Source of the DNA: an uncultured Alphaproteobacteria bacterium
GTDB taxonomy: Bacteria > Pseudomonadota > Alphaproteobacteria > Rhizobiales > Xanthobacteraceae
NCBI GenBank assembly: GCA_963825265.1
Contig: CAWGSI010000005.1
Coordinates: 347,556-411,555 of the forward strand
Direction of reading: 5' to 3'
DNA: 64,000 nucleotides
Shown: positions 9,198 through 11,507 of the stretch, piece after piece
Layout: each line of letters opens with the position of its first letter
How positions within the stretch are numbered: position 1 is the stretch's first letter
Translations under genes and position numbers: made by a program
The notes under the pieces: generated by a model
Seen by the model: only the letters and a program-made list of their open reading frames with translations
What the model was told of the DNA's origin: nothing
Database searches by the model: none

Positions 9198-9521
9198 TCA
9201 GCGCCCCTGATAGGCCGGCGTGCGCACGACCAGGCCGTCGAGCGCCTCCGTCACCTTGATCTGGCAGGCCAGCCGCGAGGTCGGTTTTACCTCGAAGGCG
9301 AAGTCGAGCATGTCCTCTTCCTCGCTCGACGGCGGGCCGACCGCCGGAAACCACTTCTCGTCCACGTGCACCAGGCAGGTCGCGCAGGTGCAGGAGCCGC
9401 CGCATTCGGCCACGATGCTGGTCACGTTATTGCGCTGCGCCGTCTCCATCACGGTCGAGCCGATTTCGGCCTCGACCGTGTGCACGGCGCCGTCATGTTC
9501 GATGTAAGTGATCTTCGGCAT
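9198..9521 (-). CDS. [2Fe-2S] ferredoxin, adrenodoxin/putidaredoxin type
   Basis: [12 protein letters not shown]...SRLACQI Cys pattern. Confidence 0.93.
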
Positions 9522-9527
9522 GAAAGA

Positions 9528-10553
9528 TTAGGCCACGCCGAGCTTTTTCTGCAGGCTGGTCGATGACGTGGTGTATTGGAACACCAACTTCTTGTCGGGA
9601 TAGACATAGTGGTAGGCCTTCTGCGCCATCAGCGCGGCCTCGTGGAAGCCCGACAAAATGAGCTTGAGCTTGCCCGGATAGGTGTTGATGTCGCCGATGG
9701 CGAACAGGCCGGGGATATTCGTCTCGAAGGCGGCGGTGTCGACTGGGATCAACTCGTCGTCCATCTTGATGCCCCAGTCGGCCACCGGGCCGAGCTTCAT
9801 GGTCAGCCCGAAGAACGGCAGCATGGCGTCGCATTCGACGCGTTCGACCGCGTCCTTGCCTTTGATCGAGGCGGCCGCGAGCTGGCCGTCGGCGCCTTCC
9901 AGCGCGGAAACCTGCCCGATCTTGAGGTCCATATGGCCTGCGGCGACCAGCGCGCGCATCTTGTTGACGCTGTCGGGCGCGCCGCGGAAATCGTCGCGCC
10001 GGTGCACCAGCGTCAGCCGTTTGGCGATCGGCTGCAGATTGAGCGTCCAGTCGAGCGCGCTATCGCCGCCGCCGACGATCAGCAGCGTCTTGTCGCGGAA
10101 AGCGTCCATCTTGCGCACGGCGTAATGCACCGACTTGCCCTCGTAGGGCTCGATGCCGGGGATCGGCGGGCGCTTGGGCTGGAACGAGCCGCCGCCGGCG
10201 CCGATCACCACCACCTTCGCCTCGAACACCTGGCCGCGGTCGGTGCCGATGCGGAATCCCGGCTCGCCGATCTTTTCCAGCGTCGTTACCATTTCGTTGA
10301 GGTGAAAAGTGGGCTTGAACGGCTTGATCTGCTCCATCAAAGCGTCGGTCAGCCCATGGCCGGTGATGTAGGGGATGCCGGGAATGTCGTAGATCGGCTT
10401 TTCCGGATAAAGCTCGGCGCATTGCCCGCCGACCTTGTCGAGGATGTCGACCAGATGCGCCTTGATGTCGAGCAGTCCGAGCTCGAATACCGCGAACAGG
10501 CCGACCGGCCCCGCGCCGATGATCAGAACGTCGGTCTTGATCGTATCGCTCAT
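9528..10553 (-). CDS. Ferredoxin-NADP+ reductase, thioredoxin-reductase-like (YumC/TrxB type, no CxxC)
   Basis: [61 protein letters not shown]; 6 bp upstream of the ferredoxin gene. Confidence 0.9.
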
Positions 10554-10601
10554 TCTATTCGTCCCGGTCTCGGCCGGCTCCTCACTTCTAGTGTCCGATG
10601 G

Positions 10602-11507
10602 TCACGCCGACTGGCGCGCGATGCGAGTAGCGGGGACTGCGACGACGCGCAACAGCTCCGCCAGATTCTGTTCGGGTGTCTTGCCGGTGGTGGCGAGCAC
10701 GGCTTCCGCCTTGGCGTAAAGCGGTTCGCGGCTCTTGAGAATGGATACCAGATCCTCCATGGCGCGGGCATTGTTGGCCATCGGCCGCATGTCGCCTTGC
10801 GCCATCACCCGCTTCATATGTTCCTCCGGCTCGGCGCGCACCCAGACCGTGAAGCACGAGGCCAGCAGCAATTCAAGCGTGCCCGGTTCGGTGACGATGC
10901 TGCCGCTGGTGGCGATGACGAAATTAGTGTGCCGGCGCAACACGTCGTCGAGCGCCTCGCGCTCGGCCCGGCGGAAAGTTTCCTGGCCGAACATGTCGAA
11001 GATTTCGCTCAAATTGGCGCCGCTACGCCGCTCGATCTCGCGGTCGAGTTCAATGAAGGGTACGTCGAGACGTTCCGCCAGCAGGCGGCCGAGCGTGGAC
11101 TTGCCGCCGCCGCGCAGGCCGATCAGCGCGATTCGCCGGCGGTCCTCGGAAGGCGAGGAGAAATGCTCGGTAACGAGCTTGCGGGCTTCTAGCAGCCTTT
11201 CCGGCGGCAGCCGCTCGAGGAATTGCGTCAACAGCACCAGATCGAGCGGCGGCTCGGCGCCCTCGTGCACAAGCTGGGTGACCGGCAAGCCGATTGCGCG
11301 CGCGATCCGCCGCAGCAGCACGATCGAGATATTGCCGCGTCCGACTTCGAGTTGCGCCAGATAGCGTTCGGAAACTTTCGCATGCTGCGCCAAGGCCTTG
11401 CGCGTGATGCCGCGCTGATGTCGCAAGGTGCGCACGCGTCCGCCGAGCCGGTGCAAGTAGGCGTCGGCGGCGTGGCTTGTGGTTGGCTTGGCGCGGATTG
11501 GTTTCAT
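10602..11507 (-). CDS. boxR: BoxR/BzdR-family regulator (XRE HTH plus shikimate-kinase-like benzoyl-CoA sensor)
   Basis: HTH VSERYLAQLEVGRGNISI, P-loop GLRGGGKSTLG, RVMAQGDMRPM; divergent from boxC. Confidence 0.9.
   Translation of the reverse strand: MKPIRAKPTTSHAADAYLHRLGGRVRTLRHQRGITRKALAQHAKVSERYLAQLEVGRGNISIVLLRRIARAIGLPVTQLVHEGAEPPLDLVLLTQFLERLPPERLLEARKLVTEHFSSPSEDRRRIALIGLRGGGKSTLGRLLAERLDVPFIELDREIERRSGANLSEIFDMFGQETFRRAEREALDDVLRRHTNFVIATSGSIVTEPGTLELLLASCFTVWVRAEPEEHMKRVMAQGDMRPMANNARAMEDLVSILKSREPLYAKAEAVLATTGKTPEQNLAELLRVVAVPATRIARQSA

Follow-up and report, generated by a model that had tools for sequence, protein, structure and literature searches.

The Box pathway is a main route of aerobic and micro-oxic benzoate degradation and serves as a genomic marker, and according to the literature its epoxidase BoxAB is obligately two-component. 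In the stretch of DNA analysed here (the window, 64,000 nucleotides from the genome of a soil bacterium of a Pseudolabrys-like genus), boxB stands without boxA, which raises the question of how BoxB would receive its electrons. The initial annotation had proposed that a ferredoxin-NADP+ reductase (FNR) and a [2Fe-2S] ferredoxin encoded behind boxR might take the place of BoxA. The box genes themselves are the following.

10602 to 11507, minus strand: boxR, BoxR/BzdR-type repressor with an XRE-HTH and a shikimate-kinase-like part (NF006015, 388.9 bits, cut-off 204; PF13560 and PF01202)
11668 to 13323, plus strand: boxC, dihydrolase (TIGR03222, 932.7 bits, cut-off 712.3)
13327 to 14781, plus strand: boxB, di-iron oxygenase component of benzoyl-CoA 2,3-epoxidase (TIGR03225, 886.2 bits, cut-off 499.1, model positions 1-471 of 471)
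14778 to 16370, minus strand: benzoate-CoA ligase (TIGR02262, 726 bits), overlapping the convergent boxB by 4 bp

The open reading frame listed for boxC starts at 11566 and encodes 585 amino acids, of which the TIGR03222 model covers those from residue 38 onwards; the in-frame ATG at 11668 is likely the true start. The end of boxC is separated from boxB by 3 bp. A single boxB was found in the genome, and it carries no fused reductase domain. As the initial annotation had stated, there is no BoxA-like gene beside boxB. The ligase gene converges on boxB instead, and since the two overlap, there is no room downstream for a boxA remnant.

Using the boxA profile (TIGR03224, cut-off 459.2 bits), no match above the cut-off was found in the entire 4.43-Mb assembly, which is 91% complete, and the best match of 76.5 bits was the FNR-like domain of CysJ. 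Weak matches were CysJ-type flavoproteins (adjacent cysJI/nirA cluster), a poly-ferredoxin, a 7Fe ferredoxin and the FNR-like subunit of a Mo-enzyme module. The neighbouring CysJ was rejected as a specific electron donor of BoxB, because cysJ heads a sulfite/nitrite-reductase operon. boxA was also absent from all 25 genomes of the genus (our own and 24 others), including the closed genome G008 and the 3-contig genome G004, while boxB is carried by 20 of them. That boxA was overlooked through incompleteness or divergence was rejected on the strength of the 24 other members of the genus, the closed genome among them.

A locus without boxA might also be one that no longer works. If BoxB and BoxC of the boxA-less lineages were relics or had another role, no reductase would be required, and the lack of a boxD-like aldehyde dehydrogenase in our genome (best match to the G009 aldehyde dehydrogenase 26% identical) fits such a loss. 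However, both proteins are intact, that is full-length and stop-free with 73-93% identity across dozens of species, and they score far over the equivalog cut-offs. BoxR, the candidate operators described below and the benzoate-CoA ligase are retained alongside them. We therefore consider a non-working epoxidase very improbable.

The absence of boxA is not confined to this genus. In an even sample of the order, boxA was missing from 10 of 42 boxB-bearing genomes, and in every sampled genome that has boxA, it directly adjoins boxB. Genome-wide searches of 25 other genomes with boxA-less box loci (Bradyrhizobium, Rhodopila and others) returned no boxA, and no ferredoxin or reductase was found within 10 kb in about 30 other boxA-less loci (Bradyrhizobium, Rhodopila, Acetobacteraceae and Gemmatimonas-like). 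We also considered another reductase beside boxB in the boxA-less genomes without FNR linkage (G027, G003, G009, G015, Bradyrhizobium, Rhodopila and others), where none was consistent and the genes downstream of boxB were mutually unrelated. In Bradyrhizobium, the gene that separates bcl from boxC has a translation resembling a lactonase-like alpha/beta-hydrolase. Since ferredoxin and FNR genes do not stand near boxB in these other lineages, the linkage arose once and is unneeded for a BoxA-less pathway. Judged from these gene neighbourhoods, BoxB is evidently able to work, if at all, with unlinked donors.

In the window, two redox genes follow boxR on the minus strand, divergent from boxC-boxB.

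9528 to 10553, minus strand: fnr, 341-aa ferredoxin-NADP+ reductase of the thioredoxin reductase (TrxR) type, full-length match to 5YGQ, the Rhodopseudomonas palustris FNR (E 1.5e-182)
9198 to 9521, minus strand: fdx2, 107-aa [2Fe-2S] ferredoxin of the adrenodoxin/putidaredoxin type (Fer2, PF00111, 48.3 bits)
10564 to 10582, minus strand: conserved AGGAG, then a short hairpin (CCGGC-N3-6-GCCGG) immediately before the start codon of fnr, with no T-run after it

The R. palustris FNR is the closest solved structure to FNR. Other FNRs of the TrxR type (3AB1, 3LZW and 6GAS) matched at E 1e-66 to 1e-70, whereas true TrxRs matched at 1e-24 to 1e-26 only, and the TIGR01292 score of 116.7 bits is far under the cut-off of 343. 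The 341-residue sequence has no CxxC and keeps the C-terminal VFQYTTSST motif aligned with that of the R. palustris FNR (RpFNR). Both identities given in the initial annotation thus held, through the 5YGQ match and PF00111, and so did the two gaps, with direct reading giving 48 bp from the boxR stop to the fnr ATG and 6 bp from the fnr stop to the fdx2 ATG.

The order boxR-FNR-Fdx was kept in 15 or more species genomes and in another 14 public loci. The boxR-fnr gap in relatives is mostly between -8 and +63 bp, and the genes stay tightly spaced in at least 29 loci. Nearly all box-linked loci have the AGGAG-hairpin, whose arms are invariant while its loop varies, and it was absent upstream of FNR where the ancestral arrangement of Fdx then FNR occurs. 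The co-occurrence of the pair with boxA-less box clusters, which had been suggested as a check, was observed in these genomes and loci, but the pair is unlinked in Bradyrhizobium and others.

The earlier caveat that such a pair is common in Rhizobiales was well founded, as throughout the order an Fdx-then-FNR pair is near-universal, whether box genes are present or not. In box-less relatives the pair does occur, but at a different locus and in the opposite gene order, and not at the same locus as had been considered. Since fnr is the only copy in our genome, it is a housekeeping gene, and together with the near-universal occurrence of the pair this means that its position could be neutral. In that case fnr and fdx2 would be general redox genes beside boxR, and BoxB would be reduced by any low-potential carrier, such as the paralogue Fdx1, another ferredoxin or a flavodoxin. 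A generic donor would indeed have to serve Bradyrhizobium and the other boxA-less lineages, and the survey described above points the same way, with its quarter-scale absence of boxA across the order sample, its 25 tested genomes free of both boxA and a linked reductase, and a linkage that arose only once. The features of Fdx2, of the transcription unit and of its spacing, described below, are less readily explained by neutral adjacency, and we regard it as rather unlikely.

Fdx2 has the ligand pattern C40-x5-C46-x2-C49-x36-C86 (Cys40, Cys46, Cys49 and Cys86), and its top solved matches are the R. palustris ferredoxin 3HUI, R. capsulatus FdVI 1E9M, terpredoxin and putidaredoxin. Its signature is CATC-L-V-H-V as against CATCHVYV, and its C-terminus is TPAYQGR. 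Among 17 Fdx2 sequences, His50 is replaced by Leu, Met or Val in 16 (Leu50 in our own) and Tyr52 by His in 15, while Val in place of Glu37, Tyr104 and the C-terminal extension to Arg107 were found in all 17. A His directly after the third Cys (CxTCH) was present in all 21 Fdx1 and other-family sequences, and Fdx2 does not share this family trait. The His at residue 50 is family-typical and not a cluster ligand. Fdx2 still belongs to the fold family, within which this change sets it apart as a diverged subtype.

The housekeeping copy, Fdx1, is encoded at G000:C2:19956-20270 in our own genome and is 69% identical to Fdx2. It is the orthologue of the ferredoxin preceding FNR in G003, G015 and G026, with 77-84% identity compared to 61-65% for Fdx2. 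Most genomes of the genus have both. Fdx2 stood beside box or aromatic-catabolism genes in every context seen, and a homologue search returned only near-identical metagenome variants with at least 82% identity. In G015 the order is boxC> <boxR <fdx2 with a gap of 56 bp; FNR is not part of it, and its gene stays behind Fdx1. Neutral adjacency leaves unexplained why the diverged Fdx2 always accompanies such genes while Fdx1 remains at the old locus, why G015 has Fdx2 behind boxR without FNR, and why the tight spacing persists over at least 29 loci. Fdx2 was not, however, an invention for the Box pathway. In a Pseudorhodoplanes genome with boxA, a ferredoxin of the Fdx2 lineage was found in an Fdx1-FdxX-FNR tandem, and therefore the lineage predates the genus and a box-specific invention was rejected.

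The initial annotation had added that the pair might also supply the neighbouring 4-hydroxybenzoyl-CoA reductase, HcrABC.

16382 to 20286, minus strand: hcrB, hcrA and hcrC, subunits of a 4-hydroxybenzoyl-CoA reductase-like molybdoenzyme

The alpha subunit (TIGR03194, 1157 against a cut-off of 994.6) and the beta subunit (TIGR03195, 413.6 against 404.6) exceeded their cut-offs, and the gamma subunit (TIGR03193, 243.3 bits) was just under that of 257.8. If Fdx2, with FNR, mainly served this enzyme, its proximity to the box genes would be secondary, since Hcr needs reduced ferredoxin. In the window, as in 9 of 14 related public loci, hcrCAB-bcl and the box genes are adjacent, and HcrB has the long insertion typical of ferredoxin-dependent HcrB (FAD_binding_5 over residues 12-231 compared to a 170-position profile). 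In G009, a distance of 1.8 kb separates Fdx2 from hcrCAB-bcl, whereas boxCB is found on a different contig. However, fdx2, fnr and boxR-boxCB are kept in the closed genome G008 and in G005, G006, G015 and G024, which have no bona fide HcrA, and five public loci have the module with no hcr within 10 kb. Fdx2 is also always co-oriented with boxR and never with the hcr operon. In Thauera, Hcr is known to receive its electrons from a 2[4Fe-4S] ferredoxin whose potential is much lower. Since Fdx2 and the box genes persist without bona fide HcrA, the supply of Hcr is weakened, and a main role of Fdx2 there appears improbable.

The origin of the arrangement could be traced by comparing loci. The Fdx1 locus on contig C2 of our genome is collinear on both sides with the Fdx1-FNR locus of G003 and G015, minus the FNR gene. 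The FNR tree unites the 15 box-linked genomes in a clade whose sister, within a monophyletic genus, is the clade with the ancestral arrangement (4 genomes). Horizontal acquisition of the box-linked FNR was rejected, because the FNR tree follows the genus. The collinearity and the tree show that the single FNR gene moved once, from the ancestral Fdx1 locus to behind boxR, and that the arrangement in the window is the derived one. The nearest BoxB relative with boxA, L091, belongs to the same well-supported BoxB clade, and its genome has one Fdx followed by FNR. boxA together with a single Fdx-FNR pair in the same clade is the pattern expected for a replacement.

The intergenic region between boxR and boxC contains two candidate operators resembling TGCA-N6-TGCA, the motif of BoxR/BzdR (PMC6449761).

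11523 to 11536, no strand assigned: candidate BoxR operator 1, TGCATTATAATGCG, with GCATTATAATGC as its palindrome core, 16 bp upstream of the boxR ATG
11606 to 11619, no strand assigned: candidate BoxR operator 2, TGAAAAATAATGCA, differing from TGCA-N6-TGCA at one position, in the part of the intergenic region towards boxC

Candidate operator 1 includes a TATAAT hexamer. Its core is unique in the window, with 0 occurrences expected by chance, and it is conserved at this position throughout the clade. At the place of candidate operator 2, relatives have the perfect form TGCATTATTTTGCA, and operator-like TGCA-N6-TGCA sites are conserved before both boxR and boxC in relatives. A promoter consensus scan returned 0 promoters, and terminator-like matches were at chance level; between boxR, fnr and fdx2 no terminator-like site was found on their strand. 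boxR would be the first gene of a putative boxR-fnr-fdx2 unit, and the three genes are probably transcribed together from a BoxR-operated promoter. The presence of the sole FNR gene inside a unit with candidate BoxR operators is again left unexplained by neutral adjacency.

We propose that the aerobic Box pathway of this Pseudolabrys-like lineage does without BoxA and that electrons most likely, with a probability of about one half, pass from NADPH through FNR and Fdx2 to BoxB. NADPH would reduce the FAD of the TrxR-type FNR, FNR would reduce Fdx2, and Fdx2 would deliver electrons to the di-iron centre of BoxB. Directly behind boxR lies fdx2, in most species together with fnr, and both would be co-transcribed with boxR. 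BoxR-operated co-transcription would make both genes inducible by benzoyl-CoA together with boxCB. Fdx2 would be the box-specific part of the chain, and FNR the general reductase of the cell whose single gene moved into the operon.

The suggestion of a replacement for BoxA thus gained ground through the observed gene content, the genus-wide absence of boxA, the conserved pair, the paralogy of Fdx2, the relocation of FNR and the BoxR-type operator motifs. It lost ground through a pair that is near-universal without box genes, an FNR that is the sole copy and other boxA-less lineages in which the pair is unlinked. Published biochemistry counts in favour of the proposed chain: BoxA is required in minor amounts only, its contact with BoxB is transient (PMC4498308), and a midpoint potential of -0.285 V is given for the FAD of RpFNR (PMC9137726). 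The closest characterised pair, R. palustris FNR RPA3954 and its neighbour, the [2Fe-2S] ferredoxin RPA3956, showed low reactivity in vitro (PMC9137726). This low reactivity counts against the proposed chain, as do the location of Fdx2 away from boxCB in G009, the age of the Fdx2 lineage and the single origin of the Fdx-FNR-box linkage. Literature searches returned no account of BoxA being replaced by a ferredoxin and an FNR, and one paper notes BoxA-less clusters as incomplete (PMC10803450).

More tentatively, BoxA may be dispensable in many alphaproteobacterial Box pathways, with BoxB reduced by the ubiquitous adrenodoxin-type ferredoxin and TrxR-type FNR, and Pseudolabrys would then represent a captured end state. 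In this wider reading boxA was lost at least four times, and about a quarter of the boxB-bearing Hyphomicrobiales are without it, including essentially all sampled Bradyrhizobium. The Fdx paralogue would have been drawn into the BoxR regulon first and the sole FNR gene afterwards, resulting in a three-component benzoyl-CoA epoxidase. If so, rules that demand boxA for a pathway call would consistently overlook organisms that degrade benzoyl-CoA aerobically in soils.

If FNR and a dedicated ferredoxin do replace BoxA, many abundant soil Alphaproteobacteria (Pseudolabrys, Bradyrhizobium) now scored as incomplete by annotation rules would be real benzoyl-CoA epoxidisers, and BoxB would illustrate how di-iron oxygenases switch redox partners. 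The TrxR-type FNR/[2Fe-2S] pair of Rhizobiales would gain a concrete candidate function. The move of a single-copy housekeeping gene to a catabolic regulon in one step would be an unusual and datable evolutionary event.

Compared with the BoxABC/BoxR systems of Azoarcus/Aromatoleum evansii and Burkholderiales, the locus has the same BoxB, BoxC, BoxR and adjacent benzoate-CoA ligase, and the divergent boxR/boxC promoter region likewise has TGCA-N6-TGCA motifs. Unlike in those systems, BoxA (2x[4Fe-4S] with an FAD/NADPH reductase) is absent from the genome and the genus, the ligase gene converges after boxB, a separate FNR and [2Fe-2S] ferredoxin are encoded behind boxR, and no boxD-like gene was found. 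The phenylacetyl-CoA epoxidase PaaABC(D)E is a homologous di-iron acyl-CoA ring epoxidase that is also fed by NADPH via an Fe-S/flavin reductase. However, PaaE is one operon-encoded protein in which an FNR-like part and a plant-type [2Fe-2S] part are fused, whereas here two separate proteins of unrelated families are found.

The proposed chain resembles class I P450 and three-component chains, such as putidaredoxin reductase/putidaredoxin and PuR/Pux of R. palustris, in which a NAD(P)H flavoprotein passes electrons through an adrenodoxin-type [2Fe-2S] shuttle to a terminal oxygenase. Tyr104 of Fdx2 recalls Trp106 of putidaredoxin, an aromatic residue near the C-terminus. Unlike in those chains, the reductase is of the TrxR type and not a ferredoxin reductase of the glutathione-reductase type, and a di-iron acyl-CoA epoxidase would take the place of the P450 as terminal enzyme.

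FNR resembles RPA3954 of R. palustris (5YGQ), which it matches over its full length with about 80% identity (by eye), including the C-terminal Tyr motif; the role of Tyr328, the re-face Tyr of RpFNR, has been described (PMC9137726). The ferredoxin is of the same adrenodoxin type as RPA3956, with 3HUI as the closest solved ferredoxin, and the Fdx-FNR neighbourhood is conserved throughout the order. Unlike in R. palustris, the gene order here is FNR then Fdx inside the boxR unit, Fdx2 ends in Tyr-Gln-Gly-Arg and is without the His that follows the third Cys, and the Fdx1-type orthologue of the R. palustris ferredoxin stands alone elsewhere in the genome.

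The aromatic-acid catabolic island occupies 9.2-20.3 kb of the window, and its genes are arranged as follows.

9198-9521, minus strand: fdx2, the box-associated ferredoxin (Fdx2)
9528-10553, minus strand: fnr, the TrxR-type ferredoxin-NADP reductase (FNR)
10602-11507, minus strand: boxR
ORF from 11566, likely true start ATG 11668, plus strand: boxC
13327-14781, plus strand: boxB
14778-16370, minus strand: benzoate-CoA ligase
16382-20286, minus strand: hcrB, hcrA and hcrC

The spacings of 48 bp between boxR and fnr and 6 bp between fnr and fdx2 reported in the initial annotation are exact. 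The 5' end of the boxC ORF (11566-11667) is over-called, as the family model begins at residue 38 and position 11668 offers an in-frame ATG. Because the listed hcrA ORF overlaps hcrC by 187 bp, its start too has probably been set too far upstream. HcrC (19804-20286) scored 243.3 bits, slightly under the TIGR03193 equivalog threshold (257.8 bits). Outside the window, at C19:786925-789162, the same genome has another bona fide hcrA (1287.8 bits, against 1157.4 for the window copy), and several genomes of the genus also carry two copies. One in-frame TAG each was observed in HcrA/xanthine-dehydrogenase-family genes of three related genomes (G022:C241:15521-17830, G011:C325:20063-22372 and G009:C75:13007-15091), the frame being otherwise open over 900-990 aa; a shared pseudogene or read-through at this codon could explain it. 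The whole genome (91% complete) yielded no boxD/PaaZ-like aldehyde dehydrogenase, and the best match to the aldehyde dehydrogenase lying between bcl and fdx2 in G009 (L187:7303-8886) was only 26% identical.

BoxA, the usual BoxB reductase, had been reported missing, and the genome-wide search confirmed this: the best score of the NCBIfam BoxA model in the 4.43-Mb assembly (91% complete) was 76.5 bits, compared with a cut-off of 459. The weak matches were CysJ-type flavoproteins and generic Fe-S proteins and were rejected as BoxA. With 4 bp shared between boxB and the converging ligase gene, a boxA remnant downstream is impossible. In the Pseudolabrys-like genus boxB was present in 20 of 25 genomes, and boxA was found in none of the 24 others, among them the closed G008 and the three-contig assembly G004. 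Of 80 public boxB loci taken with 10 kb on each side, 13 were too short for assignment; boxA immediately followed boxB in 23, FNR and a ferredoxin adjoined boxR in 14, every one from the Pseudolabrys clade, and 30 had neither. No boxA was found in the 25 whole genomes searched behind boxA-less loci, which included at least 10 cultured Bradyrhizobium, Rhodopila globiformis and one Rhodoplanes MAG. In an evenly drawn order-level sample of 201 genomes, each at least 90% complete, boxB occurred in 42 and boxA in 32, directly adjoining boxB every time; the boxA-less 10 of 42 are spread over at least six genera. At least four changes of boxA state are found along the BoxB tree. Two species of one genus in this sample (g98; G199 and G229) both carry boxB and only one carries boxA, which looks like a very recent loss. 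No explanation of boxA-less clusters was found in the literature, and one paper simply counted them as incomplete (PMC10803450). That the Box module is non-functional appears very improbable.

The fnr product matches the R. palustris FNR (PDB 5YGQ) over its full length (E 1.5e-182), lacks a CxxC motif and retains the C-terminal Tyr motif, while fdx2 encodes a [2Fe-2S] ferredoxin of the adrenodoxin/putidaredoxin type, whose cluster ligands are C40, C46, C49 and C86. The initial annotation had cautioned that the two might be mere housekeeping neighbours, and had counted synteny of the pair at this locus in relatives without box genes against its own reading. In part this is so: FNR was found in 35 of 41 relatives from 15 genera, mostly single-copy and even in a 1.4-Mb genome, and a ferredoxin of the same type stands immediately before it in genomes of other families, whether or not these carry box genes. 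The order there is Fdx then FNR, whereas the window arrangement is derived. A second ferredoxin, Fdx1, lies at C2:19956-20270 of the same genome and is 69% identical to the window copy, and most genomes of the genus have both. The C2 copy shares 77-84% identity with the FNR-preceding ferredoxins of genomes G003 and G015, and the window copy 61-65%; by this comparison the former is the true orthologue and the latter is not the housekeeping copy. On either side, the C2 locus is collinear with its Fdx1-FNR counterpart in G003 and G015, but FNR is cleanly gone; in the FNR tree the genus is monophyletic, with 4 genomes in an ancestral-arrangement clade and 15 in a box-linked one. Hence, the sole FNR gene moved once and was then inherited vertically. 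A coincidental adjacency, with BoxB served by generic donors, is somewhat unlikely. In three genomes of the genus (G010, G013 and G018; 75-80% complete) Fdx1 was found and TrxR-type FNR, Fdx2 and boxB were not detected; either the box-fnr-fdx2 region is unbinned or these species live without TrxR-type FNR.

Fdx2 forms a separate clade and is present in 18 of the 20 boxB-bearing genomes of the genus, the other two being incomplete (68% and 83%). Its signature was defined from 17 Fdx2 sequences by changes absent or rare in 21 Fdx1 and other-family sequences. The His following the third Cys ligand, invariant in the 21, is Leu, Met or Val in 16 of 17 Fdx2, and a His stands two residues further on in 15 of 17. 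Fdx2 also has Val in place of Glu37 and a C-terminus of TP-A/S-YQGR, with the aromatic Tyr104 and an extension of two residues. These positions are located in the cluster loop and C-terminal tail, which control partner recognition in adrenodoxin and putidaredoxin. In G015, one 5.2-kb contig reads boxC> <boxR <fdx2 (gap 56 bp) and lacks FNR, which is still behind Fdx1 in this genome, suggesting that Fdx2 is the part staying with box and that FNR is able to act from elsewhere in the genome. The pair had also been proposed to supply Hcr. Fdx2 does adjoin hcrCAB-bcl and an aldehyde dehydrogenase in G009, an exception in which a more divergent boxCB lies on a different contig. However, fdx2, fnr and boxR-boxCB are kept without a bona fide HcrA in five genomes (the closed G008, G005, G006, G015 and G024), and hcr is absent within 10 kb at five public loci, which weakens Hcr supply as the main role and makes it improbable. 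The genome of the nearest boxA-bearing BoxB relative (L091), inside the same well-supported BoxB clade, has one ferredoxin only, then FNR. A boxA-bearing Pseudorhodoplanes MAG (L192, G067) carries a tandem Fdx1-FdxX-FNR at 459-2310, from which the box-linked ferredoxin may ultimately derive. The FdxX of this tandem bears an SYQGR tail and clusters with Fdx2; the Fdx2 lineage thus predates the genus and was recruited to the box cluster rather than invented for it.

The 160-bp boxR-boxC intergenic region contains two TGCA-N6-TGCA-type sites. The first (11523-11536) is 16 bp away from the start of boxR and contains a TATAAT hexamer; its palindromic core, GCATTATAATGC, occurs nowhere else in the window. 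The second (11606-11619) is inside the over-called boxC extension. Both candidate operators are conserved across the clade, likewise in boxA-bearing relatives, and fit the BoxR/BzdR motif, which has an experimental basis (summarised in PMC6449761). Most of some 29 loci have a boxR-fnr gap of -8 to +63 bp, and no terminator-like structure was found between boxR, fnr and fdx2 on their strand. It is reasonable to predict from this layout a single BoxR-controlled transcript responding to benzoyl-CoA, with a constitutive promoter likely in addition, given the single copy of FNR. An AGGAG followed by a hairpin (CCGGC-N3-6-GCCGG; 10564-10582, minus strand) was observed 10-25 nt 5' of the fnr ATG, sometimes within the boxR 3' end, with invariant arms and a variable loop. 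It occurs in nearly all genomes with fnr behind boxR and never before fnr in the ancestral arrangement, and could be a translation-coupling element, an RNA-processing element or a protein-binding site.

In the proposed chain, NADPH would reduce the FAD of FNR (midpoint potential of the R. palustris homologue -0.285 V, PMC9137726), FNR would reduce the [2Fe-2S] cluster of Fdx2 in single-electron steps, Fdx2 would supply the di-iron centre of BoxB, and BoxC would take away the epoxide product. We assign this three-component reading a probability of about 0.5. BoxA is required in small amounts only and binds BoxB transiently (PMC4498308); given this and its repeated loss in the order and beyond, replacement of BoxA is plausible. 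The main biochemical caveat is the low reactivity of R. palustris FNR towards the Fdx1-type ferredoxin encoded next to it (PMC9137726). The case is comparative throughout, yet coherent and directly testable, and the bacteria concerned are abundant in soil. Compared to the BoxAB system, the Box cluster of the window lacks one defining feature, BoxA, and in its predicted working it would be closest to three-component oxygenase chains with an adrenodoxin-type shuttle.
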